In this document: positions 841 to 21,690 of the stretch, piece by piece
Numbering within the stretch: position 1 is the first letter of the stretch
Layout: every line of letters begins with the position of its first letter
Source of the DNA: a virus
Lineage: Duplodnaviria > Caudoviricetes
IMG/VR virus record: IMGVR_UViG_3300026196_000007
Span: 1-47,817 of that record
DNA length: 47,817 nt
Reading direction: 5' to 3' (one strand)
The notes under the pieces: generated by a model
The model's input: the letters and a program-made list of their open reading frames with translations, nothing else
Told to the model about the DNA's origin: nothing
Databases searched by the model: none
Made by a program: the position numbers and the translations under genes

Positions 841-1300
841 ACACCCCCATGCATGTAAATTAATAGTCGTAGCCAGGTGGGCACCTCCCAGTTGTGCAGA
901 CGGGGGTCAGTGGGGGGTGCTTATCTGGCTTTTTTTAGGCTTTTTTTATTCAGCGTTTTTTCGGCCACGCTTGTTCCACCAAGCACGAAAATAACCTGTG
1001 CAGAGTTTGTGGAAAAGATCGGTTGTGGCGTCTCTACCCCAGACGCCCCAAGGGGATAAACGAGGTTGGTGGGTTGTGAGGCTCACCAAACGCACGAAAG
1101 ATTCGCCGACCACGGGATTACGGTGGGGCAGGGACAAGGCCAAGTCTCAAACATTGGCACCTCGATAAATCACAACCGGCACCTCTGAAGAGATTTTGGC
1201 TTTTTTCTTAGGCCATTTTCACTTTTTTGGGGGTTTTGGCTTTTACCCCATGCCAAACTGCACTTCATATACGGTGCAGAAGAACGGGGTGGGGTGGACT
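841..1300 (+). ncRNA. Candidate structured non-coding element, copy 1
   Basis: G-U-containing 20-bp stem 871-890/911-930; shares motifs and covarying stems with 21249-21690. Confidence 0.6.
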
Positions 1301-1401
1301 ATGTCCAGAGATCAGGCAGAGAAAACTAGCGCCGGTTTCAATCAAGATTCTAACGACGCGGCACACAGTCCTGGAAAAATCAAAACCACAAAGGAAATCA
1401 A

Positions 1402-1818
1402 ATGGTAAACAAGGTAATTTTAATCGGAAACCTAGGTGCAGATCCGGAAGTGCGCCACACCACAAACGGTGCAACAGTCGCCACGTTTACAGTCGCAACC
1501 ACCGAGCAGTGGAAGGGCGCCGACGGGAATAAGCAGGAGCAGACAGAGTGGCACCGGGTAGTGGCTTGGAAAAGGCTGGCTGAGATATGCGGCGAGTATC
1601 TTGCCAAGGGTGCGAAGGTCTACATCGAGGGTAAGCTACAGACCAGGAAGTGGCAGGCCCAGGATGGAACCGACCGGTATACCACCGAGATCGTTGCCAG
1701 GGAAATGAAGATGCTGTCCGGGAAGGGTGATAGTGGCAGAGCACAATCGTCAAACACTCAAAGAGATAGCCCTGCTCAAGGCCCTACGCCCAGTACGGGA
1801 GAGGATGTCCCGTTTTAA
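1402..1818 (+). CDS. ssb: Single-stranded DNA-binding protein
   Basis: [33 protein letters not shown] and acidic C-terminal DVPF. Confidence 0.97.
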
Positions 1819-1840
1819 TTCCCGCGCTGTTATAACCCCC

Positions 1841-1876
1841 AAAAAAGGCCCCTTACCTAGTGCAAGGGGCCTTTTT
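1841..1876. terminator. Bidirectional intrinsic terminator
   Basis: AAAAAAGGCCCCTT-loop-AAGGGGCCTTTTT between convergent genes. Confidence 0.85.
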
Positions 1877-2004
1877 ATTATTGTTTATATGAGTTGTTTT
1901 GGTAAAAACCCAGCCCCTTGTGGGTCGGGAACTTGAAGGTTTCGACTCTTTGCGTTTTCAAATGGCAAAACAATGTGCCGAAACCATCCAAAACATGAAT
2001 AATC

Positions 2005-2211
2005 TTAAAAAAGCGAGCCCTGCACAGGAGGCTTTCTTCTGTCAGGCTCTCGTTTAACTTCTACCTCCTTCTTGGTGTAATATCGACATTCTTTGCATCT
2101 GCTTCTTCCTGACTCCTGGATAGAGATGCAATGGCGGATGTTCCCGCTCTCCTCCATATCTTTGCCGTAAGCATTCGGGCAGTATTGTGGGGTCATTTTT
2201 CGCCGCATCAA
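2005..2211 (-). CDS. Hypothetical Cys-containing protein
   Basis: 68 aa; start overlaps the upstream stop. Confidence 0.55.
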   Translation of the reverse strand: MMRRKMTPQYCPNAYGKDMEESGNIRHCISIQESGRSRCKECRYYTKKEVEVKREPDRRKPPVQGSLF

Positions 2212-2540
2212 AATGCCTTCCCACCATGCCGGTACTCACGGTTGGCGTTAAATTCAATTTTCGCAACCAGAGCCTCGGCCACCTCCCATCCCCTGGCCGC
2301 AGCCATATCCATTATCCTGATGATAACATCGGCAAGCTCAACCTCGCACGCGGAAAATTCTGGCAATTTGTTGTCTGGCCCATTGCCGGCGCGTAATGCC
2401 TCAAGAGCCTCTGAGAGTTCGGAATGGCAAAGAGCTATCAACTCACCATCGTTTCGTTCGCCCTCCCACCACCCCTTGGCTATGGCATTCTCGTGAACAG
2501 CGTTCGCAATAGTATTGAATGCAGTTACAAATTCATTCAT
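2208..2540 (-). CDS. MazG-like NTP pyrophosphohydrolase
   Basis: IALCHSELSEALEA and EVELADVIIRIMD motifs; own RBS and start (MNEF) inside the longer 2208-2963 ORF. Confidence 0.85.
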   Translation of the reverse strand: MNEFVTAFNTIANAVHENAIAKGWWEGERNDGELIALCHSELSEALEALRAGNGPDNKLPEFSACEVELADVIIRIMDMAAARGWEVAEALVAKIEFNANREYRHGGKAF

Positions 2541-2822
2541 GTTTTCCCCTTGTTGGTCGTTAGACCACTCAAGACTTTCGGCCCACTCAATCAAGTCTTT
2601 CTTTGATGTAAATTTCTTCTTCCGGAGATTCATTACATAAGCAACCTGACCGAAACCGAAAATCATAAAAAGAATGCCAGTCAGAAACGTCCACCACGTG
2701 CTTCCAATGCTTATATAAATACAGAACGCCAGGAAGCAAAACGTCACCATGTCAGAGAAAACACTCTGGAGAAACGACTCAGTTCTATCTATTACCGCAT
2801 ACTCTTTTTGTTCTTTTTTCAT
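2541..2822 (-). CDS. Small two-TM membrane protein, reads in frame into the MazG-like gene
   Basis: MKKEQ start at 2822, two hydrophobic segments, no stop before 2208. Confidence 0.55.
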
Positions 2823-2834
2823 ATCAACCCCAAT

Positions 2835-2899
2835 TGTTAACCAATAAATCGACGCGGATGCCGCAAACAGCGCGGAACCAGTTATTTTGGCGATTGGGT
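2835..2899 (+). mobile_element. attC-like site, degenerate R'
   Basis: TGTTAAC-CAATA-AATCGACG...AGTTATT-TTGGCG-ATTGGGT. Confidence 0.55.
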
Positions 2900-3028
2900 T
2901 AAAGAAGCCCCGCGAGGTTTGAAATCCCGTTAGCGACTCTCCGTTGGTTGTCCGGCCAATCACTGGTCACGCTGTCTATGATCTCAAGAAAAGAGTCAAA
3001 CTCGACCTGAGTCCGCAGAATTCACAGG

Positions 3029-3430
3029 TCATGATTTCCTTTCAATAACAACTACGTTCTCACCATCTAGCACAACGTCGGCTATTCTTGGCTTCCAGCG
3101 CATTGCCGCTCCATTGCGATTCAGTTTCACTTTGCGCCATGACCACAGCTCGCACGGTGCGTGTTTAAGCCATTCGTAGACGGCTTCGTTGCGCTCTTCC
3201 ATGAGCTTCTTAACGTGCTCTGAATAGGCCTGTCCGCATGACTGTACGGCGACGATTCCAGCCGTAGGGTCAATGCAGATAATGTCGATGAACCCGAACA
3301 GATCTTGTCGTATTCCAAACGCTCCGACGTTCCGGTTGAATCTTTCTACAATACCGCACAACCTGCCTTGTTCGCGCATTGCTTTGAGCGTTCTCTGTGT
3401 TGGGCTAATTCCTGCCATGTCTATTCCCAC
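3029..3430 (-). CDS. PD-(D/E)XK-like nuclease, possible Holliday junction resolvase
   Basis: SPTQRTL...QDLFGFIDIIC...VAVQ pattern. Confidence 0.55.
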   Translation of the reverse strand: MGIDMAGISPTQRTLKAMREQGRLCGIVERFNRNVGAFGIRQDLFGFIDIICIDPTAGIVAVQSCGQAYSEHVKKLMEERNEAVYEWLKHAPCELWSWRKVKLNRNGAAMRWKPRIADVVLDGENVVVIERKS

Positions 3431-3530
3431 TTGTTTACACGTTCCCGCGCAACTGCAAAATATGTTTCGTCAAGCTCAATGCCTATGAAGTTCCGGCCAA
3501 GGTTCTTGCAAGCTACGCCGGTTGTGCCTG
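3421..3530 (-). pseudogene. Orphan C-terminal fragment of an N6/N4 DNA methyltransferase
   Basis: SGTTGVACKNLGRNFIGIELDETYF duplicates the C-terminus of the 4067-4843 frame. Confidence 0.8.
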
Positions 3531-4112
3531 AACGCTGTGCCTGTACACTCTTGCAATCCAAGTATAAAAATCGTTCTCGCTCATTGTATGTTTTGCAAAG
3601 TTGCAATATTTACAACATGCAACAGTATTGCTACCAGTGTACCCTTTTGAATTGTTAACTCTATCTACCCCATTGCATTTGAGGATATGGTCAGACAATC
3701 GTTTTCTGGCGTTTGACTCGTTAAGTCTATCTTCAATCTCTTTTGAATGAGATAGCCCACAATATTTACAAGGGGATTTAGATAATAGAGAGAATTTTCT
3801 AAAACTAATAACATTACTAAAGCCCATTTTTTTATTTCTTCGCTTTAGATGGCTATATTGAACTCTAAGTAAGGCTTTTTCCCTATCTTCAAAAAGTCCG
3901 TACTGGTTCCCACGTCTTAGTAAAAATTCAGTGAGAAGACACCCGCAACTTTTAGATTTTTTACTAGAAAGATTATCGCCAACTACTATCTTGTTAGCCC
4001 CACAATCACATTTACACATCCATAGATGTTTTCCTCTGTGGTCTTTTCCTTCGTGCTGTATGACAACTAATCGCCCATACCTCTGCCCTGTCCTGTCTTT
4101 AAACGCTGGCAT
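3513..4112 (-). CDS. HNH-type homing endonuclease
   Basis: GQRYGRLVV, CKCDCG and SCGC N-domain; CKYCG...GVDRVNNSKGY...CCKYCNFAK; AT-rich. Confidence 0.8.
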   Translation of the reverse strand: MPAFKDRTGQRYGRLVVIQHEGKDHRGKHLWMCKCDCGANKIVVGDNLSSKKSKSCGCLLTEFLLRRGNQYGLFEDREKALLRVQYSHLKRRNKKMGFSNVISFRKFSLLSKSPCKYCGLSHSKEIEDRLNESNARKRLSDHILKCNGVDRVNNSKGYTGSNTVACCKYCNFAKHTMSENDFYTWIARVYRHSVQAQPA

Positions 4113-4843
4113 TCTATTGCACCATTTACCCTTTTAACTCCAATATTGTAATAATCTTTATCTAATTCGATCCCTATGAATCTACGGTTTAGATTAACAC
4201 ATGCAACACCAGTTGTAAAGCTACCAGCGCAGAAATCAAGTACCGTGTCGCACTTGTTGGTGTAGGTCTTGATTAGGTACTCCATCAAGGCTACTGGCTT
4301 TTGCGTTGGGTGCATCCTATTTCTTAAGTCTCTGTTGCATTCTATCAAGCTTGTTGGGTATCGTTTGCCTTTGTTCTGAGTTATATATCCTTCTTTTGTC
4401 CCAGTCTTCCCGAAAACCTCATTATCATTATACTTGCGTGTAATTGTATATGCCTTCCCGTCTGTAAACTGTGGGTTATAATTTGGAAGTTTTTTATAAA
4501 ACACAAGGATATTCTCGTGTTTCTTTAGCGGCATTTTGTTTGCATTTAGGTTTCCGGTACCCTGCTCCTTCACCCATAGCCACTCGTATCGCAGCATATT
4601 TAAATTACTAACGCCGAGCACTTTGTCAAAAGGAGTTTGCGCCATAAGTAAAATAGCACCGTTCGGCTTAATGATCCGCTTAAGTTGTTCCCACATCGGC
4701 GCAAGAGGAATAATCGAATCCCACTTACACGCTGTAGTTCCGTAAAGCTATGGAGGGTCTGCAAGAATCATATCCACTGATGAATCAGGGATAATTTTCA
4801 TTACATCAAGGCAGTCGCCGCAATGCAACTCAAATTCTTGCAA
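4067..4843 (-). pseudogene. N6-adenine/N4-cytosine DNA methyltransferase (beta class) with an in-frame TAG in the DPPY motif
   Basis: TTG start at 4843 after AAGGAG; HCGDCL...ADPP*LYGTT; HPTQKP; VLDFCAGS; TAG at 4748-4750. Confidence 0.8.
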
Positions 4844-4863
4844 ACCCAAATCTCCTTGTTTGC

Positions 4864-5355
4864 TCATATTAAATATCTACCAATATTTGATTTAATGTTC
4901 TCCCATTCTTCTTGGGTCATATCATTTTTGCACCTGTTCTCAAACCACGTCAAGAATTGTATATTGCGTAGCTCGTTCGTTCCCCCTTTTGCCTTGGGAT
5001 GAATATGATCAATAGATGGTTTTAAGTATGCTTCTTTCCCAGAATTGACCCATGTTTCATATATGGCATTAAATTGTCCACATGAATAAAAAAACAATAA
5101 ATAGTCTTGATACCATTCTGTAGAAACATCAAACCGCCCAGACCTGTTAGTTATGCAATCATTGAGCAGTTTTAGTTTTTCTATGTCATCAAATTGAGAT
5201 AACCACTCAGCAGTAACGGCAAACCGCGAGTGAGATGCCATATTCTTATATACTGATTCTTTGGGCATCTTCTTACCCTTAGACCATGTTTTGCGCCCCA
5301 TGCAAGCCTTACTAATATTGTCCCTGTGCCGTTGTGTAAATATTCTCTTTTTCAT
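4864..5355 (-). CDS. HNH endonuclease with NUMOD3-like N-terminus
   Basis: SIDHIHPKAKGG...NIQFLTWFENRCK; AT-rich. Confidence 0.85.
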   Translation of the reverse strand: MKKRIFTQRHRDNISKACMGRKTWSKGKKMPKESVYKNMASHSRFAVTAEWLSQFDDIEKLKLLNDCITNRSGRFDVSTEWYQDYLLFFYSCGQFNAIYETWVNSGKEAYLKPSIDHIHPKAKGGTNELRNIQFLTWFENRCKNDMTQEEWENIKSNIGRYLI

Positions 5356-5362
5356 ATGGGTA

Positions 5363-5391
5363 TATATACTCTATACTTGCAGACTTGTCAA
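5363..5391 (-). promoter_or_regulatory. Sigma70-type promoter for the HNH gene
   Basis: TTGACA-17bp-TATATA with the ATG about 7 nt downstream. Confidence 0.6.
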
Positions 5392-5395
5392 TAGA

Positions 5396-5569
5396 CTAAC
5401 AGCAAGTAAATGGCGGGTCGGGCAGTACCAGGTCAACGCTCCCGGCTTCAAGCGTTCCCATCAACTGGAGGCAATCCCCGTGCAGGAGTACAGGTTTATT
5501 AATAAGGTGTTTCATCGGATTGGCACCAGCGCCGGTGCCGGTGTCTTCTATGGTTTCATCTTTGTTCAT
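5396..5569 (-). pseudogene. Orphan N-terminal fragment of an N6/N4 DNA methyltransferase
   Basis: Manual translation: LLHGDCLQLMGTLEAGSVDLVLPDPPFTCC*; similarity ends at DPP. Confidence 0.8.
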
Positions 5570-5585
5570 TCTTTCATGCTCCTAG

Positions 5586-6530
5586 TTATGCCAGCCGGTG
5601 AGCTTGGCGGTTAACCACGTCCAGCCAGTCATGCCCTACCGTCACCGGCGTGAAAACCTGGACCGACAACTTGTTGATTACCGACAGTCTGTTGGCTAGT
5701 TTATATGCCGCCTTTTGTCCAGCAAAATTTTGGTCATTATCAGCAATTATTATGGCCTCTTTCACGGCTGGCGGCGGGATAAATGATTCCATCAGCGAGG
5801 TGCTCAGCGTTGCCCACACCGGTATTCCGAGATCGTCATGTGCAGCTATTGCCGTCTCTATCCCCTCAGCTACCCCTAATATACTGTCGCAATCGTAAAG
5901 CCTCACCGCACCCCCAACCATTTGCCCGATGCATGGCATGTGCATTTTTGGTGCTGCAACTGGTAGTTTGTTTCCTTCAGGTGTCAAATATATTCGCTGC
6001 ATTGTTACTGCTTTGTTGTCTGCCCCTGTAAATACTGCCAGCAATGCGTGTTCATTCTGCTTCGTCTCCACGTTCCAGCATTTTCGAGTATGCCTCAAGC
6101 ATCCCGGGATATCCTTCAACCCCCGGTTTGTAAGATATCGGTGCGCAACGTCACCACGTCTTATTGGTGCCGATTCAATAAATGTTTTCCTTAGCAAATC
6201 TGGAGACACCGGCTTTTCTTCCGGGACAGGATTCAGTTCGCAATTACCTACAATGCTCGCGACAGCCTCCATAGCTTCCCTTACATCGATGCCGAGCACC
6301 CTCATAACCAGGTCGATTCCGAACCCAGGACCACAGCCATTGCAATAATACGATCCCCTTTCCGCAACGTTCCTATCGACCCTGAACCTGTCAGATTTTT
6401 TAGATCCTGGTGAGCAGGCTGGGCATGGACCGTGACGTCCTGTTTCATTTACGTTTATCCCGAGTGACCTCCATACGCTTAGCCACTTTCCGCTGGCCGC
6501 TTTTTTAACCGCATCAAATTCTACGGCCAC
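5586..6530 (-). CDS. Phage primase (Zn ribbon + Toprim)
   Basis: HGPCPAC...DRF...CNGCG; VAEGIETA; IIADND. Confidence 0.9.
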   Translation of the reverse strand: MAVEFDAVKKAASGKWLSVWRSLGINVNETGRHGPCPACSPGSKKSDRFRVDRNVAERGSYYCNGCGPGFGIDLVMRVLGIDVREAMEAVASIVGNCELNPVPEEKPVSPDLLRKTFIESAPIRRGDVAHRYLTNRGLKDIPGCLRHTRKCWNVETKQNEHALLAVFTGADNKAVTMQRIYLTPEGNKLPVAAPKMHMPCIGQMVGGAVRLYDCDSILGVAEGIETAIAAHDDLGIPVWATLSTSLMESFIPPPAVKEAIIIADNDQNFAGQKAAYKLANRLSVINKLSVQVFTPVTVGHDWLDVVNRQAHRLA

Positions 6531-8061
6531 GATCTTTGCTCTTCGCTTTTTTGATATTCAGATGGATGATAAAGTTGATAAATGCGTCGTCAGGTTCGAT
6601 TGGGGAAACGTCGCTCACGTTCCGTGGCCATACTCCGGTACGTTCCCGGTATTTGTGCGCGGCCCACCCGTGCCTGTATCCTTTCTGCAGTTGATATGCC
6701 AGGCACATCCCATACCATCTCCTTTTGTCTGCCTTTGTCATCCCCTTCTTTCCGGATATTTCCTCAAGCGTCCCCTCCTGAACCTCTACTTTCCGCCCAA
6801 ATGAAGTAACTGGACTACCGCAGTCAGGGCAAACCTTAGACCCTTCAAACACCAGATGGCAAGCCGAGCATTTTGTTGGCCGCTTCTCCTTCTCTTTTTT
6901 CTCGACCTCTCTGTATGCTTTCTCGTTTCCTTCGAGCGTCCACTCGACGACATCAGTCAAATACCCGTGGTCCTCGATGCACCCTACATGGTCAAATATT
7001 TTGCAGTCTGGATACATGGATGATACTCTAAGTCCGCGGCCACATGCCTGGCGATAAAGTCCTAGCGATTTGGTGGGCCTGGCCATTACCACACATGAGA
7101 TGTTTGGGCAGTCCATTCCTTCCTGATACAGCGCAACATTGCAAAGCACCGTCAGTTCTCCGGATTGCATTTTTCGGAATACCAGATCCCTTTCGTCGTC
7201 GCTGGACCTGGCATCTAGGTGGGCTGCTGAGATTCCAACTCGCAGGAATTCTTCGCATACACTGATTGAGTGTTTCACCGTCAAACAGAAAACTATGGTA
7301 GGCCGTCCATCTGCTGCCCTGAGCCAGTTATCTACTATATCGCCGGTTATCTTTTTGGTGTTCGTTCTCGCTTCAATTCCCTTTATATCATAATCTCCCC
7401 GAACTATTTTAACCCCGCTCGTGTCAACTGTTGAAGGAGCATAGTACCTTGGTGTGGCTAGATGGCCGGCTTCAACTAGCTCCTTAACACCGATCACATC
7501 CACAATCTTTTCGTAAATATTCCCCAGCGGCTTGCCATCAGACCTCATCGGTGTAGCGGTACACCCAATAATAACTCGGTCATGGTACATCTCCAGGGTT
7601 TCCATGTACACTTTTCCCAGCGACCTGTGACATTCGTCGATAAGGACAACCTGCGCATCGACAAAAAACCGGCTGTTTTCGAGTTTAATCCTTCTTGAGT
7701 ATGTTTGGTATGTCCCGACCTGCACTTTTTTATGCATCTCTGAGTCGACACCCGCCATAATCACTCCGGCATCAATCCCGAACTTTAGTAGCGTTTCCCT
7801 CATCTGTGCGACCAGGTTCCTCCGGTGTACCAGCCATAGTACCCGGCATCCCTTTGAAATAGATAGGCGAATAATCTCTGCCATTATCCAACTTTTACCA
7901 GCTCCAGTAGGCAATGCCAGTATGATTTTTTTGAATCCACTTGCAACCACGTTCCTTGCCTCGTCGACGGCTCGCTGCTGGTAGTCTCGCAACACTGGCA
8001 TGTCACTCAAAACAGCCTCTCTTGTTCTCATTTCGGCGCCTGTAAACTTGTAGGCAATCAC
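6514..8061 (-). CDS. Superfamily 2 DEAD/DEAH-box helicase with C-terminal Zn finger
   Basis: LPTGAGKS, DECH, TATP, QACGRGLR, CxxC...CPDCG. Confidence 0.93.
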   Translation of the reverse strand: MIAYKFTGAEMRTREAVLSDMPVLRDYQQRAVDEARNVVASGFKKIILALPTGAGKSWIMAEIIRLSISKGCRVLWLVHRRNLVAQMRETLLKFGIDAGVIMAGVDSEMHKKVQVGTYQTYSRRIKLENSRFFVDAQVVLIDECHRSLGKVYMETLEMYHDRVIIGCTATPMRSDGKPLGNIYEKIVDVIGVKELVEAGHLATPRYYAPSTVDTSGVKIVRGDYDIKGIEARTNTKKITGDIVDNWLRAADGRPTIVFCLTVKHSISVCEEFLRVGISAAHLDARSSDDERDLVFRKMQSGELTVLCNVALYQEGMDCPNISCVVMARPTKSLGLYRQACGRGLRVSSMYPDCKIFDHVGCIEDHGYLTDVVEWTLEGNEKAYREVEKKEKEKRPTKCSACHLVFEGSKVCPDCGSPVTSFGRKVEVQEGTLEEISGKKGMTKADKRRWYGMCLAYQLQKGYRHGWAAHKYRERTGVWPRNVSDVSPIEPDDAFINFIIHLNIKKAKSKDRGRRI

Positions 8062-8082
8062 AGTTGTTTCCCCTTGTAAAAT

Positions 8083-8808: not shown

Positions 8809-8838
8809 GGTTTACCCTTTTTGCAAATTTAAACCTAT

Positions 8839-8886
8839 GGCCAACAAAGGTTTCAACCGGACGAGCCGGTTAAACCAGCGTTAGCC
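8839..8886 (+). mobile_element. attC-like site
   Basis: GGCCAAC-AAAGG-TTTCAACC-GGACGAGCC-GGTTAAA-CCAGC-GTTAGCC. Confidence 0.8.
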
Positions 8887-9255: not shown

Positions 9256-9278
9256 GTATTTTGTTAAGAGTTTTCATT

Positions 9279-10281: not shown

Positions 10282-10306
10282 CTTTTCCCTCCGTGGCCCG
10301 AACGCA

Positions 10307-12840: not shown

Positions 12841-12888
12841 GGTTTTTTCCTTTTTTTTGTCAGTTATTGTTGCCCGTTGTCAGCGGCG

Positions 12889-13131: not shown

Positions 13132-13132
13132 A

Positions 13133-13225: not shown

Positions 13226-13285
13226 CACCATAAAATCATCAAGCTTTGGTATTAATGTTTCCATGGCTCGGCGTTGGGGTTTCAA

Positions 13286-13597: not shown

Positions 13598-13643
13598 AAA
13601 AATTACTCCCCAAGTAGTTAAAGTGGAGGTGAGAACCAGACAA

Positions 13644-15596: not shown

Positions 15597-15679
15597 GGTT
15601 TTTCCTTTACAGCGGTTTATTCTTGAAGATCAAAGCCCTGTCCCTGCAATAATTTCGGCATTTATCTCCCTCTCAATAA

Positions 15680-15744
15680 ATATAACAAAGCGTTAGAGAA
15701 TCGACGCGCACAACAGCCGCGCGCGTCTCAACTCATCGTTATTT
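15680..15744 (+). mobile_element. attC-like site
   Basis: ATATAAC-AAAGC-GTTAGAGA...TCTCAAC-TCATC-GTTATTT. Confidence 0.8.
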
Positions 15745-15960
15745 GTCGGCCAATTTGTTTAGAATTTCACCAAGACGCACATATTGTGCCTCGATGTTTT
15801 GGTTAGCAGTTTTCCAATAATCAACCAGCTCAGGGGGTATGTCTGGCCTTTTTAATGCCGCCGTTCTCTCCTTCCCCACGCTCCAATACATGGTCGAAAG
15901 GCCGATTAAGCAAACAAGAAAACATGCAGAGACGCCTACACAAAATCCAATCCAGAACAT
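15739..15960 (-). CDS. Small membrane-anchored protein
   Basis: 73 aa, N-terminal TM, AAGGAG RBS, stop in R'. Confidence 0.7.
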   Translation of the reverse strand: MFWIGFCVGVSACFLVCLIGLSTMYWSVGKERTAALKRPDIPPELVDYWKTANQNIEAQYVRLGEILNKLADK

Positions 15961-15983
15961 AACATTCTCCTTTTTGTTTATTC

Positions 15984-16068
15984 AAACAACAATTCGCTAC
16001 AGTGGATGCTGAGAACTCAGCGGTTTTGATTCAGCGTCAGTGGCGCACCACTGAGCTTTCCGTTAGAT
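15984..16068 (+). mobile_element. attC-like site
   Basis: AAACAAC-AATTC-GCTACAGT-GGATGC...GCACC-ACTGAGC-TTTCC-GTTAGAT. Confidence 0.8.
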
Positions 16069-16554
16069 TGCCTTTAAACAATCTTTGTTCATTACAAACA
16101 CTGTTTCACAGTCCCATCCATATAGAGATTTAGGATTAGTGAACCTTGTGTCATTCTCTCCATTTTCTGTTAAGTGGATAGCGTCGTATTTTCCCGCCAA
16201 TCTTTCAAAATCAATCCAAGGGAACATATCCTCTCCCTCCCAAGGAAGGCGAAGCATGTCTTCAACAGAATCAATTCTCAAAAGACTCCCTACAAACTCA
16301 AGATTGAAGCATTTGCATGTATCTCCATAGCTCTCTGCCTCACACCAGTCTTTCCAGCCAAAACAAGGACCCACAGGGCTTGTCCACAACCCGCCTTTTG
16401 GCTTATTCCTGCGAGGCGAGTTGGTTACTGGTAAAACCAGTTCTTTTTTAAACTCCAAACTACCGTAGTGAACCAACTCAAGTCTAACCAAACGCTCAAT
16501 AGGACTTGCGGAGTTTATCGGTTTTTCAGTGCTTATGGCTTCTGTCGTGTCCAT
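16063..16554 (-). CDS. Phage hypothetical protein, possibly ADP-ribosyltransferase-like fold
   Basis: HYG...NKPKGGLWTSP...YDAIHLT...LYGWDCET; first ~24 aa encoded by the attC-like site. Confidence 0.6.
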   Translation of the reverse strand: MDTTEAISTEKPINSASPIERLVRLELVHYGSLEFKKELVLPVTNSPRRNKPKGGLWTSPVGPCFGWKDWCEAESYGDTCKCFNLEFVGSLLRIDSVEDMLRLPWEGEDMFPWIDFERLAGKYDAIHLTENGENDTRFTNPKSLYGWDCETVFVMNKDCLKAI

Positions 16555-16611
16555 TAGTTTATCCTCGTTATTGGGCTTTGCATCCGCAATCCCATTAGCT
16601 CAACGTCATCT
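16482..16611 (+). mobile_element. Long attC-like site (R' GTC variant) containing a gene start
   Basis: GTCTAAC-CAAAC-GCTCAATA-GGACTTGCGGA...TCCGCAATCC-CATTAGC-TCAAC-GTCATCT. Confidence 0.8.
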
Positions 16612-16863
16612 GGCTTTGTTTTTCTCATGGTTTCTCAAGCTCTGTTCGGCATACCTCACAATGTCACCAAGGGTATTTGTCTCCGTCGGCTGTGATTCAG
16701 ACCACAGAACCCACCCTTCGTCGGTCCGCAATACTATGCGGCTGTATTCGTAGGAAATAACAGCGTCAGATAACCCGGCGCTCAACCCGGATGGAACATT
16801 GTGCGGTGCTGGCGCTGGCGGTGGTTTCTTAAATGTCGGTGGTGGATTGCTTCCTTTCTTCAT
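16606..16863 (-). CDS. Hypothetical protein
   Basis: Likely start MKKGSNPPP after GGAGGAG; stop in R'. Confidence 0.6.
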   Translation of the reverse strand: MKKGSNPPPTFKKPPPAPAPHNVPSGLSAGLSDAVISYEYSRIVLRTDEGWVLWSESQPTETNTLGDIVRYAEQSLRNHEKNKAR

Positions 16864-16901
16864 GTCTCCTCCCTTGGTTCCGGCGAGCTTAGTCGTTGGC
16901 C
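16768..16901 (+). mobile_element. Long attC-like site, imperfect L pairing
   Basis: AGATAAC-CCGGC-GCTCAACC-CGGATGGAAC...GTTCC-GGCGAGC-TTAGTC-GTTGGCC. Confidence 0.6.
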
Positions 16902-16925
16902 TGCATGAAATCCATGCGTCCTTCT

Positions 16926-17105
16926 TCATTGATCCTCATTACGACAAGGCATCTCGACGGGCTCTTTCCCCAAGCCCTGGGGTGTTTTGCTTGCGACCAT
17001 GTTTTCCAAGACCGAGGCCATAGATTTCTCCTCGACTGCAGCAATTAAGCGGAGCTTGGATAGTGTTTTTTTCCAAATCTTGATAGTCACAAATTCATTC
17101 TTCAT
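16926..17105 (-). CDS. 59-aa ribbon-helix-helix-like regulator (not in ORF track)
   Basis: Manual translation MKNEFVTIKIWKKTLSKLRLIAAVEEKSMASVLENMV... Confidence 0.65.
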   Translation of the reverse strand: MKNEFVTIKIWKKTLSKLRLIAAVEEKSMASVLENMVASKTPQGLGKEPVEMPCRNEDQ

Positions 17106-17111
17106 GTAGTT

Positions 17112-17140
17112 AATTTACACCTTGCAAGTAAAGAAGTCAA
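17112..17140 (-). promoter_or_regulatory. Sigma70-type promoter
   Basis: TTGACT-17bp-TAAATT, 6 nt before the ATG at 17105. Confidence 0.65.
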
Positions 17141-17158
17141 CAGTAAATATAAACCTAT

Positions 17159-17206
17159 GGCCAACAAAGGTTTCAACCGGACGAGACGGTTAAACCAGCG
17201 TTACAC
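17159..17206 (+). mobile_element. attC-like site, near-identical to 8839-8886
   Basis: 17150-17203 matches 8830-8883 at 53 of 54 positions. Confidence 0.8.
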
Positions 17207-17971
17207 TGACAATATCGCACGACCAATAATCTCCGGTATCTGCGGGATCACGGCGTTTCCGAGCTTGTTAATTCTGTCCACCTTATTGGGTAGCCCATCA
17301 ACCACTCTAGCCATTCCGGGTTCAATCCAGAGCTGCACATTTTCTTTCTCTGCCCCACTCCCACTATCTTGTCCAGTTTGTCCTTGGCCGCAGATCCACC
17401 GCCCAACCCAACCGGCCCCCCTCCCGGCAAACCGCGACTGCACGGAGTAGGCCACAATATAGCATCGGTCGCGCACTTGAGGGGAGCCAACGACATGACC
17501 TGGTATACAATGCCATTCTGCATCGTACCCGAGCGCGGCAAGGGAGTTAAGCACTTCCGCAAGTCCGTCAGCGCACAGCCTAGCGACATTTTCCGCAAGC
17601 ACGAATTTCGGGTTAGCTTCTTCGACAAGCCTACGCATCTCTCGCCAGAGGGAGCTTTGTTTCCCTTTAAGCCCTTCCATTTTCCCTGCCCTACTAATGT
17701 CTTGACAGGGGAACCCTCCGCAAATAACGTCAACTGCTTCTGGTAAGTCTGCTGCATGTAATTGCCTCACGTCTTCAAATATCGGCACATCAGGCCAGTG
17801 CTTTGCTAATACCTTGCGCGGAAAAGGTTCGATTTCACAAAAGGCTATCGTCCTAAATCCACCTGTCCGTTCCAATCCAAGAGAAAAACCTCCAATGCCG
17901 CTAAATAGATCAAGCACTGTATAACAAGGCGCTACACAAGGATTTGCTAACATGTCGGCATTTTCGGCCAT
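17201..17971 (-). CDS. dcm: C5-cytosine DNA methyltransferase
   Basis: LDLFSGIGG, GGFPCQD, ENV, RDRCYIV, LGNAV. Confidence 0.93.
   Translation of the reverse strand: MAENADMLANPCVAPCYTVLDLFSGIGGFSLGLERTGGFRTIAFCEIEPFPRKVLAKHWPDVPIFEDVRQLHAADLPEAVDVICGGFPCQDISRAGKMEGLKGKQSSLWREMRRLVEEANPKFVLAENVARLCADGLAEVLNSLAALGYDAEWHCIPGHVVGSPQVRDRCYIVAYSVQSRFAGRGAGWVGRWICGQGQTGQDSGSGAEKENVQLWIEPGMARVVDGLPNKVDRINKLGNAVIPQIPEIIGRAILSV
17248..17757 (-). CDS. Nested alternative-frame ORF inside dcm
   Basis: 169 aa open frame ending LNPEWLEWLMGYPIRWT. Confidence 0.45.
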   Translation of the reverse strand: MQQTYQKQLTLFAEGSPVKTLVGQGKWKGLKGNKAPSGERCVGLSKKLTRNSCLRKMSLGCALTDLRKCLTPLPRSGTMQNGIVYQVMSLAPLKCATDAILWPTPCSRGLPGGGPVGLGGGSAAKDKLDKIVGVGQRKKMCSSGLNPEWLEWLMGYPIRWTELTSSETP

Positions 17972-18048
17972 CTTCTCACTTCCCTATTTCATCTTTAATT
18001 CATACTCACAGGTTCTAAGCCGCAAACCTGTGAGCTAAGGCGTTATTT
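17919..18048 (+). mobile_element. Long attC-like site containing the dcm start
   Basis: GTATAAC-AAGGC-GCTACACA-AGGATTTGC...GCAAACC-TGTGAGC-TAAGGC-GTTATTT. Confidence 0.85.
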
Positions 18049-18540
18049 GTCAACAGAAAACAGTGCAGCGGTCCCTACCCTTCGGCTTAACACACAACTT
18101 GAGCCGGACAGAGATGCTTTGCGAAATCCATTGGTGCCCCCGTATTCAGGATCAACAGCGGCACCAGTGTTACTGTCCTTGCTCAGCTTTTCCCACTCGG
18201 ATTGCGGTTTTTTCGGCGGGGTTCGTCCGCCGAGGTCTTTGAGCAACGCCTCGTCCACCACCGCCGCCACTTGCCGCCGCAGGTGCCTCGACAGGGTGGA
18301 ACGGTTAACGCCATATTTGCTCGCCATCGCCGTGACCCCGAGCCGTTGTCCAGTCTGTTTGATTGTGTATATGATTCCGGTCCCTGATGGCCGTAGAGCC
18401 TGGTCTGTGAGCCGTTGAGGCCGATCCAACGCTTTCCAACGGTAGTACAATGTGTGGTAAGGGAGGCCGTATTCCTTGGCAAAGTTTTTAAGCAAGTCAG
18501 TCTTCCCTTTGTATGATACTCGTATTCTCTTGGCTACCAT
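18043..18540 (-). CDS. Hypothetical protein with HTH-like segments
   Basis: AKEYGLPYHTLYYR and ASKYGVNRSTLSRH. Confidence 0.6.
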   Translation of the reverse strand: MVAKRIRVSYKGKTDLLKNFAKEYGLPYHTLYYRWKALDRPQRLTDQALRPSGTGIIYTIKQTGQRLGVTAMASKYGVNRSTLSRHLRRQVAAVVDEALLKDLGGRTPPKKPQSEWEKLSKDSNTGAAVDPEYGGTNGFRKASLSGSSCVLSRRVGTAALFSVDK

Positions 18541-18547
18541 AATCTTT

Positions 18548-18790
18548 TCACCTTGGGTTTTTACAAAGAAAGAAATCGGCCCAAGTCGGGCTAGGTATTT
18601 TGCTTAAAGCCTGTTTTTCATCTTCAGAAACCATAACAAGCCCTGGGCGGCCCCTTTTTCCAAGTTCGCACGAGTTAATTTTGCCCCCTCCAGCACGGGC
18701 AAGTTTTATTATAGTCGAGTGGCTGCGTTTCAAGCGCTTTGCTGCGGTATAAGTGGCAACAGTCCGCCCGTCTAGTTTTATTTTTTTCAA
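18548..18790 (-). CDS. Hypothetical basic protein, HTH-like
   Basis: AAKRLKRSHSTIIKL. Confidence 0.5.
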   Translation of the reverse strand: MKKIKLDGRTVATYTAAKRLKRSHSTIIKLARAGGGKINSCELGKRGRPGLVMVSEDEKQALSKIPSPTWADFFLCKNPR

Positions 18791-18965
18791 TTTTCTTTAG
18801 TCATCCCACTCCTCGCGAAAAAGGATCTCAATACACTCCAGAAAACCTACGAAACAGATTACTGCGAACGCTGCTTCCATATCATCTCTCCTTTAATTTC
18901 CGCCACCACTTTAAGCCGGTGGCTGATTATTTCATCCAGTCTCAACGGCGGGGTGCGCGTTATCT

Positions 18966-19646
18966 CTAAGGTAGCCACTGCCACCATCTGCCGCCATGCC
19001 CCGGATAGTCAAGGCATGTCCAATATGTATCGTTATGCCTCCCTGTTTGGTGTTTATGCCAATGGCCGAAAAACCACTGAGCCGGTTTATATTTCTCTAA
19101 TATCCGGTCAAGGGCTATTCTGTTGCTGTCACGATGCTTTCCTTCACTGCCAACAACATCAAAAGATCCCGGGCAAGTGTGGCTTATAATAATGTCAACC
19201 CTTTCCTCTATAGCCATAGCCATCTCAAACTCAGGCAAGCTGATATTTTCTTCGGAATACCAATCATGCCCCGGGGTTCGCATGTTCTTGTCAATTGAAT
19301 CAGCCCCACCGATAAATAAGACATTCCTGCCATCAGGCAGAGTTAAAACGCTGCCCCTTGATGCGTGGTAGACACCTTCGTACATTTCGTGTATAAGGCC
19401 ATCCTGGGTAAGCAATTGGTGCTCCTCATGATTGCCATCACACCAATACACATTTGCTCCGTTAGGCTTAACACCACGTAACATCCATATTTTCTGTCTT
19501 CCATATAACACAGGCTTGGGGACCTCCATTTTCGGCCACCAGCCAAAATCACCGCATTGCAAAACAATTTCCGGTTTCTTCTTTGTTAACAGAGTATTGA
19601 GTCTCGCCCAATCTCCATGGATATCTCCAACTATCAAGGTTTTCAT
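18966..19646 (-). CDS. Calcineurin-like metallophosphoesterase
   Basis: GDIHG, GDFG, GNHE, SHTCP, FGHWH. Confidence 0.92.
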   Translation of the reverse strand: MKTLIVGDIHGDWARLNTLLTKKKPEIVLQCGDFGWWPKMEVPKPVLYGRQKIWMLRGVKPNGANVYWCDGNHEEHQLLTQDGLIHEMYEGVYHASRGSVLTLPDGRNVLFIGGADSIDKNMRTPGHDWYSEENISLPEFEMAMAIEERVDIIISHTCPGSFDVVGSEGKHRDSNRIALDRILEKYKPAQWFFGHWHKHQTGRHNDTYWTCLDYPGHGGRWWQWLP

Positions 19647-19999
19647 AATTTTAACCAAACCAATGGCTTGCCTGCATCTTCGCGAGCGGCACAAGGCGCT
19701 CCACCACAGAGGATCGTTGCCGGACAATCTGACATATTGGCGGCAGCCTTGAAGGCCAGCTCTCGATTATAACCGCACGGGACCCTGACCAAGCCTCCAC
19801 CTGGCATGGTAAAAACGACATCAAACTGTTTTTGCGGAAGGGGTATTGGGTCGATGAGGCGAAGTGGAACACAGGATGTTTCGCCGTCCTCTGCCTCTAT
19901 TACAGCCATGTTGCGGCTATAAGACTTGATCCGGTAAGTTGTCATCGAGTAGGGGTTTGCTTTAACCCGCATCCCGTTTGCTGCGTCTTCGTAAGTCAT
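19643..19999 (-). CDS. Hypothetical protein
   Basis: 118 aa, GAGG RBS, stop overlaps the next start. Confidence 0.6.
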   Translation of the reverse strand: MTYEDAANGMRVKANPYSMTTYRIKSYSRNMAVIEAEDGETSCVPLRLIDPIPLPQKQFDVVFTMPGGGLVRVPCGYNRELAFKAAANMSDCPATILCGGAPCAAREDAGKPLVWLKL

Positions 20000-20202
20000 T
20001 TTCGGTCCTCAACGGTTATTTCAGGGTCACGTCCTGCGGCACAGGTCAGTATTGCGAGTATTCCTGGGACGGTCAGCAAAAGCATGATTATTGTGGGTGT
20101 CATTTTTCTCTCCTCCCTGGCTAGCCCGTGGCCAGCCGCTCACGTCAATGTTGTAGTGGGCCATCAAGTGGCTCGTCCGCTTGATGGCGGCGTTAGGCCT
20201 CA

Positions 20203-20400
20203 TCAGTCAGCGTCCAGCGCCGCCTGAATGCACTGCTTCATTCCGTCCCAGTACTTTATGTAGGCGTCTACGTCAACATCGCCACGCGGAAATATCCCAA
20301 GCTCGCAAGCCTTCTTTACTGCGGCATGAAGCATTTGATCGCTGGCAACGCGGCTTTGTTCGGTGTTCGTGGTGTCGTCAGTCATTGTCTTTGTCTCCAA
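20203..20400 (-). CDS. Hypothetical protein
   Basis: 65 aa, same strand as its neighbours. Confidence 0.55.
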   Translation of the reverse strand: METKTMTDDTTNTEQSRVASDQMLHAAVKKACELGIFPRGDVDVDAYIKYWDGMKQCIQAALDAD

Positions 20401-20432
20401 GTTTGGCGGCTGCCTGCCGCACAGCTTTAGCG

Positions 20433-20636
20433 TTATAGATCCTTCACACTCATCGTATTATCCACCCCGCTTTGTTTCATCAATTCCCGCAGGAACGCCG
20501 CCTGCACCCTTGTCGGCCTCCGCTGCCCGGATTCGATCCTTGATATCTCTGTGTTAAAAATCCCCATTTTCTCGGCAAGCTGTGCTTGGGTTAGACCCAG
20601 GCCCAGTCGGGCTTGTTTGAATTCTTTGTTGGTCAT
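20433..20636 (-). CDS. XRE/Cro-like HTH regulator
   Basis: FKQARLGLGLTQAQLAEKMG...ISRIESG.R.P. Confidence 0.9.
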   Translation of the reverse strand: MTNKEFKQARLGLGLTQAQLAEKMGIFNTEISRIESGQRRPTRVQAAFLRELMKQSGVDNTMSVKDL

Positions 20637-20673
20637 TTTATCCCCTGGTTAAAATCTCGTCCTCTTGATTGAA

Positions 20674-20702
20674 AAGGTACACCATTGGTTAACCCCGCGC
20701 AA
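20674..20702 (-). promoter_or_regulatory. Putative sigma70 promoter for the HTH gene
   Basis: TTGCGC-17bp-TACCTT with a GGTTAACC palindrome in the spacer. Confidence 0.4.
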
Positions 20703-20844
20703 GCGGAAAATGCACAAAAAAATAGCCGACCACAGATTTACCATGGTCGGCCAGAAACAAATAGCGCGTTGTCGTCCACCAGGCCACCGTTTAGGACGCG
20801 CTAAAAAACACTCTGCCTGCGGTGGCGGGCAAGGAAATGAGGCA

Positions 20845-21012
20845 CTACATTAAACCACACCAATCCTCGTAATCGGTCATTTCGTCTGTATCTATAACAG
20901 ACAACCTCTTCAGGCAATTGCCGCAAACAAATTCCGGGCGGCGATCTTCGGCCAGGGCCATAATCCCGTTGCATACCGGGCAAAACATGATTGTACCCTC
21001 AATGTCAGGCAT
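20845..21012 (-). CDS. Small zinc-ribbon protein
   Basis: CPVC...CGNC; GGAGGAG RBS. Confidence 0.65.
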   Translation of the reverse strand: MPDIEGTIMFCPVCNGIMALAEDRRPEFVCGNCLKRLSVIDTDEMTDYEDWCGLM

Positions 21013-21212
21013 GAACTCTCCTCCGTAATTGTTTAGCACAGTTTAACTTACTATGCAAACAATGTGCATAAAAATAGCTCACAGGCAAGCGTGTCACGGT
21101 GAGATCAGCGAGAGCCGGTCCATGACGATCTTATGAGTTTCGGGACTGCCCAGGATTTATAACTCGAGCTTGCCGGATTAAAGGGGGCCTCAACATGGGT
21201 ATCATTTTTTTC

Positions 21213-21241
21213 TTGAACATAATGTCTTATCGTGGTATCAT
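21213..21241 (+). promoter_or_regulatory. Sigma70 promoter with extended -10 upstream of the non-coding element
   Basis: TTGAAC-17bp-TATCAT preceded by TGn; predicted start coincides with the first stem. Confidence 0.7.
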
Positions 21242-21248
21242 TTTATCA

Positions 21249-21690
21249 CCCAGAACAAGATAATAAACTAGCTTTATCTAACCCCTTTAAGGGGGTACCG
21301 TTGTCTTGTTCTGGGGAACGTCTTCATTGGTACTCTTTTAAAGGGGTTTTTTATTCAGAATTTTTCGCCCCGGCAATGCACTGGCCCAAGAAATAACCTG
21401 TGTAGCAGTTAGTGCTAAATACCATGGTATCGCGTTTTCCCCCCGAACGCACTTTTGATAAACGGGCTTTGATGTGGCAAATAATCGGCGGTGTCCGGTT
21501 CAGGTGACTGCGACCTTTCTAAACGGCAGAGCACAGGTGGTATGGTCCACTTTAAAAAAACAGCCCGATAAACGATACCTGGAGCCGACTCGGCTGGCCT
21601 CTATACCCTGATCGGGGCCGTTGTTCTTCGATGAGAGCTTGTTTAACAGCTTTTATTTAGGAGCCACAAAAACGGGGGTGGGGGTGCTTT
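21249..21690 (+). ncRNA. Candidate structured non-coding element, copy 2
   Basis: No ORF in the track; interleaved G-U-containing stems; motifs and covarying stems shared with 841-1300. Confidence 0.65.

Follow-up and report, generated by a model that had tools for sequence, protein, structure and literature searches.

A lambda-like phage of 47.8 kb, whose host probably belongs to the Desulfobulbales and is presumed to be sulfate-reducing, carries two copies of a folded, non-coding element of roughly 450 bases, at 841–1300 (copy 1) and 21249–21690 (copy 2), both on the + strand of the window (the whole stretch of 47,817 nucleotides analysed). Both are likely to be made as + strand RNAs of about 450–480 bases. 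That they act as pre-primers—made by RNA polymerase, re-annealing to their own template, and like ColE1 RNA II in this respect without being homologous to it—strikes us as an evenly balanced proposition. A bolder reading would add them to the RNA-primed origins as a third, independent class, with no earlier example from a lambda-like phage. The folded RNA would display, through the G run of the SL-A loop, the P0 loop and the J0/1 linker, a discontinuous copy of the 30–45 bases from the G tract on and clamp its own template; it would replace the initiator of related phages, and its two copies would be alternative origins, each with an address sequence of its own that covaries. Taken as one claim, this falls short of probable in our judgement, and we offer it tentatively.

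Two copies of one fold

Judged from sequence and predicted structure (Table 1), the copies are paralogous, having diverged from one folded unit; overall identity is low, and five helices are common to both. The motifs and stems P1, P2 and P3 that the first-pass annotation had cited were all confirmed in place in both copies. AAATAACCTGTG begins at 989 and 21391; TTTTTTATTCAG, also conserved, at 942 (to 953 in copy 1) and 21347; the GATAAA linkers at 1055/21457 and 1164/21567; and the G tracts at 1283/21671. The similar spacing that had been noted holds too: from AAATAACCTGTG to the first GATAAA is 54 nt in each copy, and the interior of P3 is 103 and 104 nt. As for the supposedly compensatory nature of the stems, 17 of 45 hand-aligned pairs are altered on both sides and none is broken, in a comparison of two sequences only, which is too few for a formal covariation test. 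When only the 5' half of copy 2 is used to build a covariance model (R2), that model finds copy 1 with a rough E-value of 1.3e-6, as its sole other match in the 47.8 kb.

Table 1. Features of the two elements and their surroundings (positions in the window)
Feature	Position	Strand	Remarks
Weak candidate sigma70 promoter	833..861	+	TTGTTC-17-TAAATT; found by eye, missed by consensus scan
5' leader, copy 1	843..853	+	Can pair with SL-A loop (895–907); duplex −17.7 kcal/mol, shuffle p=0.021
SL-A, copy 1	871..930	+	20-bp stem, 4 G-U pairs, then U tract; mean pair probability 0.99, z −5.3; G run 902–906 in loop
P0 hairpin, copy 1	976..1012	+	8 bp, one bulge; loop with AAATAACCTGTG (989–1000)
Unpaired segments, copy 1	997..1020	+	TGTGCAGAG (997–1005), AGATC (1016–1020); recur behind G tract
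Core junction, copy 1	1020..1178	+	P1 (1020–1026/1172–1178), P2 with C-rich loop (1028–1046), P3 (1061–1066/1159–1164); GATAAA 1055, ATAAA 1165
G tract, copy 1	1283..1297	+	AAC-G4-T-G4-T-G2
Post-tract segment, copy 1	1298..1326	+	Putative hybrid/priming zone, p=0.010; TGTCCAGAG (1302–1310), 8/9 identical to P0 loop end; AGATC 1309–1313
ssb	1402..1818	+	PF00436; sole + strand gene with annotation
Terminator-like hairpin, bidirectional	1841..1877	both	z −3.5 and −4.0
Zn-ribbon/Toprim primase and SF2 helicase	5586..8061	−	
Sigma70-type promoter	21213..21241	+	TTGAAC-17-TATCAT, extended −10 TG; 9/12 consensus matches
5' leader, copy 2	21249..21264	+	16-bp helix with 21300–21315 in SL-A loop; 0/1000 shuffles as good
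SL-A, copy 2	21280..21348	+	21-bp stem with G-U pairs, then U tract; z −5.9; G run 21313–21316 in loop
P0 hairpin, copy 2	21378..21415	+	8 bp; loop with AAATAACCTGTG (21391–21402)
Repeated segments, copy 2	21397..21429	+	CCTGTG (21397), AATACCA (21418), ATGGTA (21424); same order behind G tract
Core junction, copy 2	21426..21579	+	P1, P2 (C-rich loop), P3 (21463–21468/21562–21567); pair probabilities 0.94–0.99; GATAAA 21457, ATAAA 21568
G tract, copy 2	21671..21686	+	AAC-G5-T-G5-T-G
Post-tract segment, copy 2	21687..21727	+	CCTGTG 21693, AATACCA 21700, ATGGTA 21710; p=0.0001; overlaps weak terminator-like hairpin (GCGA loop, U6; −9.4 kcal/mol, z only −0.8)

Anchor-preserving shuffles, 4000 per copy, seldom reproduce these stems. 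P3 of at least 6 bp arises in 0.2% (copy 1) and 0.5% (copy 2) of them, P1 of at least 6 together with P2 of at least 5 in 1% for each copy, a 5' stem of at least 18 bp in 1/4000 and 0/4000, and the joint P3, P1, P2 and P0 pattern in none of the 4000 for either copy. The copies fold with z of −2.98 and −2.34. The + strand gives better z-scores as RNA (−2.6 and −2.5 for copies 1 and 2) than as DNA (−2.2 and −0.8), the minus strand of copy 2 has a z of 0.2, and among 20 sampled 440-nt windows preference for folding of the + strand is strongest in the two elements.

Several features go beyond the first-pass annotation: the P0 hairpin of 8 bp that closes the AAATAACCTGTG loop in both copies (its pairing probability is low in nested folding, 0.27 and 0.05); the potential of the 5' leader for pairing with the long stem's loop; and the promoter and terminator-like hairpin that flank copy 2. 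SL-A runs straight into a U tract in both copies, leader–loop pairing competes with SL-A, and the multi-helix junction carries two AUAAA linkers. The consensus scan returned 2 promoter sites against 1.9 expected in shuffles, so it is position rather than number that counts as evidence: the copy 2 promoter, with a predicted start at about 21248, abuts the predicted 5' end of its element, and the G run follows 433 nt downstream. Copy 1 has only its weak site; an alternative start near 836 would make its leader as long as that of copy 2. Inspection by eye revealed no ORF of at least 20 aa shared by the copies, such as the conserved small hydrophobic one of a hok/sok-like type I toxin–antitoxin mRNA, and a simple consensus scan revealed no minus-strand promoter or terminator within either element that could belong to an RNA I-like antisense unit.

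Searches for known families and homologues

The earlier view of the elements as structured RNA of no assignable family is strengthened by the strand-biased fold, by the better z as RNA, by the promoter- and terminator-like sites that bracket copy 2, and by Rfam, which holds no relevant match to either copy: at E up to 10, copy 1 has none at all and copy 2 has three sub-threshold matches to miRNA hairpins. The MRB/PAGEV, ARRPOF and GEBRO motifs gave no covariance-model match at that threshold. The large RNAs GOLLD, ROOL and OLE gave none in Rfam, and ARAGORN finds no tRNA genes nearby or anywhere in the genome; group II introns (D5/D6), HEARO/omegaRNA and tmRNA were likewise unmatched in Rfam or by ARAGORN. 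Homology to ColE1 was rejected as well: the best hit of R2, which models the 5' half only, in NC_001371 has an E-value of 0.34 and lies outside RNA II, and Rfam RNAI has no match. Searching 72,556 plasmids with both copies by blastn yielded nothing, a result that covers known Frpo/ssi elements only indirectly. Pattern scans of sequence collections and covariance-model searches of related phages found no homologue outside this genome, which limits the present weight of the finding.

The G tract and the repeat behind it

The + strand is G-poor all along the genome, and G4-x-G4 tracts occur on it in the two elements only, with a single further one on the minus strand. Within 30 nt behind each tract, the P0 loop and the linker that follows it (J0/1) recur in order. 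This colinear repeat, as read from the sequence, is new relative to the earlier reading. The linker match is copy-specific—AGATC in copy 1, AATACCA in copy 2—and since cross pairings between the copies give p=0.052 and 0.58, it follows each copy's own sequence. In a targeted test the repeat scores p=0.010 in copy 1 (37/9480 genome windows equally high) and p=0.0001 in copy 2 (2/9480), values that are optimistic because the test was devised after the matches had been seen. Untargeted tests are positive in copy 2 only; in copy 1 a coverage test gives 36/91 (p=0.37, not significant), and gapped alignment, in which 925 of 2510 windows do as well, gives p=0.39.

Neighbouring genes and replication functions

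Copy 1 ends 100 nt before ssb and is likely to share a transcript with it; the hairpin beyond ssb closes both this unit and the leftward early operon. Two leftward operons each have one copy of the element 210–240 nt upstream, and no + strand gene lies downstream of copy 2. A cluster of TGTCGC repeats at 701–775 could be a protein-bound origin.

No initiator gene was recognised beside the helicase–primase or elsewhere in the genome (PHROGs, Pfam, tblastn); about one-third of the window's ORFs are without annotation and could hide one. Three phages with the same helicase–primase pair were inspected, and in two the helicase is immediately preceded by an initiator-like gene: an annotated RepL in HS1, and in G052 a DUF1376-like gene (cosine 0.89, a lead only). 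Neither protein matches the window by tblastn (best E 0.53), and neither G052 nor the stretch of HS1 examined contains a match to the RNA covariance model. PS-1, the third phage, has no annotated initiator beside its helicase and no such RNA in the stretch examined.

How the elements might act

If the elements are pre-primers, host RNA polymerase would transcribe each one rightward, and the RNA, folding as it is made, would expose the G run of the SL-A loop, the P0 loop and the J0/1 linker. While polymerase passes over the G tract, the exposed segments would base-pair with the C tract of the template and with the 15–30 template bases after it and keep the DNA from re-closing, possibly with the help of an RNA–DNA hybrid G-quadruplex. 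Termination or cleavage by RNase H would then supply a 3' end in the persistent R-loop; with SSB coating the displaced strand, a rightward fork would be started by host Pol I together with the phage helicase and primase. The 5' leader, by covering the SL-A loop, could serve as an on/off switch, and the two copies could be alternative origins, as in T4.

Paralogy, the conserved fold, strand bias, the copy 2 promoter, the split G tracts and the adjacent ssb count in favour of such priming, which gains indirect support from the repeat behind the G tract and the lack of a recognisable initiator. Counted against it are a possible terminator in copy 2, which would tend to release free RNA; the direction of the forks, which would oppose nearly all genes, and the scarcity of G on the + strand; the lack of an RNA I-like unit; the non-significant untargeted tests of the repeat in copy 1; PS-1, which in the regions examined has neither an annotated initiator beside the helicase nor this RNA; and the TGTCGC cluster and the unannotated ORFs, which leave room for a protein-bound origin and for a hidden initiator. 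The matches in the tail of copy 2, moreover, overlap a palindrome or hairpin. The G tract might also pair within the RNA, with the C-rich loop of P2 (p<0.001 in copy 1, p=0.16 in copy 2), and both copies' loops allow it. This would close a pseudoknot in a free, trans-acting large phage ncRNA, conceivably a scaffold or cage of the GOLLD/ROOL kind, or else a decoy aimed at host defence or at RNA-binding proteins—a reading we think rather unlikely. It suits copy 2's own promoter and terminator-like end and the multi-helix junction with its linkers, and has a precedent in GOLLD and ROOL, phage RNAs that have kissing loops and whose function is unknown (PMC12286853, in part), but it is at odds with the empty Rfam and tRNA searches and leaves the copy-specific repeat and the link to ssb unexplained.

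Nor do we find it at all likely that the elements are cis-regulatory leaders in which SL-A and its U tract form a terminator that the 5' leader works against, the rest binding a protein or ligand (SSB autoregulation, for example) or acting on the promoters of the divergent operons. The U runs directly after SL-A, the competing leader–loop pairing and the nearness of ssb and of the leftward operons would be in keeping with attenuation, yet copy 2 has no + strand gene to attenuate, the conserved core sits 3' of the attenuator-like part, and in copy 2 the minus strand, which would have to serve as leader for the leftward operons, has a poor fold. The folded ssDNA signal that the first-pass annotation had raised as an alternative, of the Frpo/ssi/sso type and read by RNA polymerase or primase when exposed on the + strand, is disfavoured and now looks quite improbable. 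Copy 2 folds as DNA no better than its shuffles (z −0.8) and better as RNA, the folded strand is the coding, non-template strand of ssb, a consensus scan of both strands finds no −35/−10 pair within the elements, and an ordinary duplex promoter abuts copy 2; to our knowledge, cos-type tailed phages also have no obligatory ssDNA stage. On its side are the similar size of plasmid Frpo elements and their position before ssb (PMC11541004, in part), the closeness of copy 1 to a genome end, and the statement in part of PMC5737381 that ssDNA and RNA motifs are not fully separable by bioinformatics. A decayed mobile element, or chance likeness between two intergenic regions, would accord with the low identity and the lack of outside homologues, but is scarcely credible beside the covariance-model match, the unbroken pairs and the stems that no shuffle reproduces jointly; group II intron and HEARO matches are missing from Rfam, and the 60 ORFs scanned include no transposase or reverse transcriptase.

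Comparison with known systems

Acting in trans, the elements would still represent an uncatalogued phage RNA of about 480 nt. Like GOLLD and ROOL, it would be a large multi-junction phage ncRNA of unknown function; it differs in being shorter, unmatched in Rfam and apparently rare, and in having no tRNA neighbours, where those large RNAs often lie beside tRNA islands. The Frpo/ssi elements are likewise folded and upstream of ssb, but the present ones are on the wrong strand for driving ssb, have no internal −35/−10 and fold better as RNA.

The pre-primer reading has other relatives. In T4, oriF and oriG are among several transcript-primed R-loop origins in one genome, with a requirement for SSB (PMC3016281, in part), but their R-loops depend on an AT-rich unwinding element rather than on a specific RNA fold. 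Mitochondrial CSB II (G5AG7) is likewise a pair of G runs with a single base between them, placed where a putative primer transcript ends (PMC4176368, in part), and its priming goes by way of a hybrid quadruplex (PMC4176368 and PMC3488243, both in part); the polymerase here is multi-subunit and bacterial and the upstream RNA large and folded. A site of the CSB II type is marked by termination and by a hybrid quadruplex that is K+-dependent and 7-deaza-GTP-sensitive; the likeness is one of sequence form only. MRB (pB1067)/PAGEV and ARRPOF are structured origins independent of Rep, of roughly 250–500 nt (PMC3035462 and PMC5737381, in part); ours differ in having no Rfam match and no detected RNA I of ~68 nt with its own terminator, and in belonging to a phage rather than a plasmid. 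In the relevant part of PMC3035462, the ColE1 and MRB plasmid families are the only ones described as using folded RNA in place of a Rep protein, and part of PMC5043065 terms the trigger of the persistent hybrid speculative even in ColE1. If the present elements work in this way, they allow the rule by which the template is re-annealed to be tested directly, through compensatory changes in the RNA loop and the downstream DNA; they also suggest how replication begins in helicase–primase phages that lack an initiator, and could provide origins for Desulfobulbales vectors.

The ColE1 RNA II pre-primer is about 550 nt long and has its own promoter, with an antisense RNA I of ~100 nt, itself equipped with a promoter and a terminator, over its 5' end, and an unpaired segment of the RNA pairs with the template strand near the origin. 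Its replication goes with a persistent hybrid, processing by RNase H and dependence on Pol I, and uses no Rep protein. ColE1 has G6 runs at 928–933 and 1175–1180, which we take to be those that pair with the template. The elements differ from it in showing no covariance-model or blastn similarity, no RNA I unit and no Rop, in being two and in a phage, and in their split G4-5-T-G4-5 tract with loop and linker repeats behind. They would resemble ColE1/pMB1 RNA II as candidate non-coding RNAs of ~500 nt with a promoter-like site of their own (weak in copy 1), alternative 5' pairings (predicted, here), a G run in an upstream loop and a G tract downstream, and no recognised initiator. Should they prime replication, an unrelated RNA fold would be doing a ColE1-like job in a tailed phage.

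Two diverged copies of one structured element

Copies 1 and 2, the two non-coding elements of ~450 nt on the + strand, are diverged copies of one and the same element, as the first-pass annotation had proposed: a covariance model of the 5′ half of copy 2 alone recovers copy 1 (39.7 bits, E = 1.3e-6) and matches nothing else in the genome, and a two-copy model finds no third copy there. The motifs and stems listed in that annotation are all where it placed them, and its claim that the stems differ in sequence yet keep pairing holds as well. Of 45 pairs aligned by hand, 22 are the same in the two copies, 6 carry a one-sided change, 17 a two-sided one, and none is broken; 9 of the 17 two-sided changes fall in SL-A, the long G-U-containing 5′ stem, whose register was chosen by hand. 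The helices common to both copies are SL-A (20/21 bp), P1, P2, P3 and P0 (8 bp), the last being an addition to the stems first noticed. When P0 and P2 are aligned by a fitted model, 6 of 13 pairs carry two-sided changes, versus one at most when the partners are slid.

Forcing the five helices gives a structure 3.5 kcal/mol (copy 1) or 1.9 kcal/mol (copy 2) above the minimum free energy. Both copies populate P1 well; copy 2 pairs strongly in P2 and P3 (pair probability 0.94), copy 1 moderately (0.58 and 0.53); and P0 is weak under nested folding (0.27 and 0.05). The joint pattern of stems arose in none of 4000 anchor-preserving shuffles of each copy, and P3 comprises 6 bp in both copies versus 4 bp at most in 36 chance loci of equal linker spacing. 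The element, we conclude, is real, structured, uncatalogued and present twice. A candidate pseudoknot in which CCTGTG of the P0 loop pairs with CACRGG of the P3 interior did not reach significance (p = 0.31 and 0.057) and was set aside.

Searches for relatives

The first-pass annotation could assign the element to no RNA family, and Rfam scans likewise gave no relevant match: none in the window at E up to 1, none in copy 1 at E up to 10, and generic hairpins only for copy 2. ARAGORN found no tRNA or tmRNA in the window. No homologue emerged elsewhere, either from pattern scans of viral, genome and metagenome contigs or from blastn of phages and plasmids, which returned only five matches of ~30 nt (E = 7). 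Diverged members are missed by exact patterns and could easily escape the other searches described here too. One viral scan gave no loci; a second, 26, none with the architecture by eye; a third, at least 118 in 54 of the 64 parts of the collection, none with a P3 of 6 bp or more; and a fourth, 36, with P3 of 4 bp or less. Four loci matched in genome contigs and three in metagenome contigs, two of the latter being the window's own record; none of the five that remain shows the stems.

R2, a covariance model confined to the 5′ 125 nt and built from two sequences, recovered both copies as a positive control. It found no true match in 97 terL/ssb loci, where the best E was 0.47, in 61 loci chosen by pattern, or in 51 virus records. 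Of these records, 50 are the sources of 50 of the 97 loci, six of them at least 90% complete, and one is the phage G052; three helicase-primase loci likewise gave no match. One pattern-selected locus, L162, scored E = 8e-4 and was rejected: its selection had used those very motifs, it has no P3, and by eye it looks like a P-loop ATPase gene. No published description of the element was found in the literature covered, which includes few subscription papers and no supplements such as the motif files of PMC5737381.

RNA, strand and transcript ends

Very probably, the element acts as RNA. Its + strand stems contain G-U pairs and no A-C pairs, and the fold z-scores of copies 1 and 2 (25 shuffles each) are −2.6 and −2.5 for + RNA, −2.5 and +0.2 for minus RNA, and −2.2 and −0.8 for + DNA. 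A TTGAAC-17-TATCAT site with an extended −10 lies 7 nt before the start of copy 2, and a weak GCGA-loop hairpin with U6 lies at its 3′ end; from these promoter-like and hairpin sites, its transcript would be ~480 nt long. The sole promoter candidate of copy 1 is weak and no terminator separates this copy from ssb, which makes copy 1 the probable leader of an ssb transcript that ends at a bidirectional hairpin (Table). In both copies, pairing of the 5′ leader with the SL-A loop is possible (p = 0.021 in copy 1, <0.001 in copy 2) and U runs directly follow SL-A, which suggests that the 5′ part might switch co-transcriptionally. The copies have no small ORF in common.

Genome setting and host

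The window, which is the entire contig, carries a virion module of lambda type (GpA terminase, portal, head-protease fusion, tape measure) and lysis genes. Its early module comprises RecT, an SbcC-like ATPase, an SF2 helicase, a Zn-ribbon/Toprim primase and methylases; of the 60 ORFs scanned, none was recognised as an integrase or a DNA polymerase. The terminase matches a Desulfobulbus propionicus protein at 60% and the named matches of SSB are mostly to Desulfobulbales, which together point to Desulfobulbales as the host. The ssb gene is the sole annotated gene that does not face left, and each operon boundary is occupied by one copy of the element: copy 1 is flanked by the first late gene and ssb, copy 2 by the end of the lysis genes and the first early gene. 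The gene at 45–605, used as a query, found no relatives. Of two DNA runs, one, the probable source run, covers the elements, without variants.

Features of the contig and of two compared phages
Feature	Position	Strand	Remark
Terminal dyad CGAGG..CCTCG	1–44 and 47800–47817		encloses the terminal overlap
7-base motif	33–39	minus	like lambda cosQ
First late gene	start 605
Perfect 15-bp inverted repeat	664–698		between late operon start and copy 1
TGTCGC hexamers	701, 716, 745, 754, 763		five, inverted and direct order
GGTATYAWWWT boxes	819–829, 21198–21208, 21234–21244		solely upstream of the elements
Copy 1	841–1300	+	G tract at 1283
ssb	1402–1818
Bidirectional hairpin	1841–1877		probable end of ssb transcript
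~90-nt segment	20345–20436		near-copies in other contigs
Strong terminator	20723–20753	minus	directly after first small early ORF
First early gene	start 21039
Extended −10 (TG-A-TAAAAT)	21234–21249	minus	overlaps + strand −10 of copy 2 (by eye)
Copy 2	21249–21690	+	G tract at 21671
CCTGTG, AATACCA, ATGGTA	21693, 21700, 21710		recurrences behind copy 2
Lysis genes	end 21730
134-aa ORF, phage G052	L294:9518–9922		before helicase
613-nt gap, Pseudomonas phage PS-1	L295:5874–6486		unannotated, before helicase-primase pair

The contig termini overlap by 12 nt and are probably cos ends, in which case copy 1 and ssb lie 0.8–1.8 kb from the end packaged last. The 7-base motif nearby resembles lambda cosQ. 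The repeats at 664–778 could be an operator, a late-control or an iteron-like cluster. The GGTATYAWWWT boxes (3 matches versus 0.34 expected, for a pattern derived from those same boxes) are a possible site for a regulator common to both elements, and the overlapping −10 sequences a possible bidirectional promoter for the early operon and copy 2 RNA. The minus-strand terminator suggests that the early operon may be under antitermination control. The ~90-nt segment, whose near-copies occur in both DNA runs amid unrelated flanks, looks like an integron attC-type cassette site.

A self-repeat behind the G tract

Each copy closes with a split G tract, G4-T-G4 in copy 1 and G5-T-G5 in copy 2, unique on the + strand and 384 or 361 nt, respectively, from the G run of the SL-A loop. 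Behind it, in copy 2, three upstream segments recur in order: CCTGTG of the P0 loop, AATACCA of J0/1 (the linker after P0), and ATGGTA. Upstream repeats cover 71 of the 91 bases of this tail versus 33 in shuffles (p = 0.001, untargeted); the same coverage in copy 1 is 36 of 91 (p = 0.37), and gapped alignment there gives p = 0.39. With its segments fixed by homologous position, copy 1 has TGTCCAGAG for TGTGCAGAG and AGATC for AGATC. This targeted test gives p = 0.010 for copy 1 and p = 0.0001 for copy 2, with 37 and 2 of 9480 genome windows, respectively, equally high. The linker sequence varies from copy to copy, in each case fitting the DNA downstream of that copy more closely than the DNA downstream of the other (cross pairings, p = 0.052 and 0.58). 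An RNA segment identical to the non-template strand is, of course, complementary to the template. Because the test was framed after the data had been inspected, we treat the self-repeat as a good hint, not proof.

Possible functions

Most likely the element works like ColE1 RNA II, without membership in the ColE1 family. Whether it is a pre-primer, re-annealing to its own template behind the G tract as the self-repeat hints, we rate as an even bet, since there are many counterpoints. The C-rich P2 loop can pair with the G tract in both copies, significantly in copy 1 only; a terminator would tend to free the RNA; and an antisense RNA I unit was looked for and not found. Forks moving rightward would run counter to nearly all transcription, there is no GC-skew switch at copy 2, the TGTCGC cluster (701–775) could be a protein-bound origin instead, and the closest relative of the helicase lacks the element.

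An RNA that acts in trans is the less probable reading though one to be taken seriously, and a cis-acting attenuator we consider improbable. A folded ssDNA signal is more improbable still: the DNA folding energies speak against it, the folded strand is the wrong one relative to ssb, and internal promoter hexamers are absent (compare passages of PMC11541004 and PMC4595007).

Replication genes and known systems

No replication initiator was recognised in the window. The three phages compared, HS1, G052 and PS-1, have the same helicase-primase pair as the window. In HS1 the gene immediately before the helicase is an annotated RepL, and in G052 it is a DUF1376-like lead; at this position the window has a metallo-beta-lactamase-fold gene, and neither HS1 RepL nor the G052 ORF has a match in it. 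The likeness of the G052 ORF to DUF1376/Lin1244_N/DUF6291 initiator-type domains is at lead level. Folding of the PS-1 gap is mild (z −2.2, 20 shuffles), and neither Rfam nor R2 matches it.

In ColE1, an upstream segment of the RNA pairs with the template near the origin, the same geometry as the self-repeat. The ColE1 record has two G6 runs, 247 nt apart, and no covariance-model match; a supposed likeness to ColE1 motifs was not upheld by it. The persistent hybrid, RNase H and Pol I steps are described in the ColE1 passages of PMC5043065, PMC8683028 and PMC5935869, from which the RNA-template pairing geometry is absent. At CSB II, a hybrid quadruplex halts transcription at the priming site (passages of PMC4176368 and PMC3488243; for the quadruplex also PMC3664831), and the G tracts of both copies are alike in form, in sequence form only. 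SSB is required on R-loop substrates in T4 (in part of PMC3016281); here, ssb lies behind copy 1.
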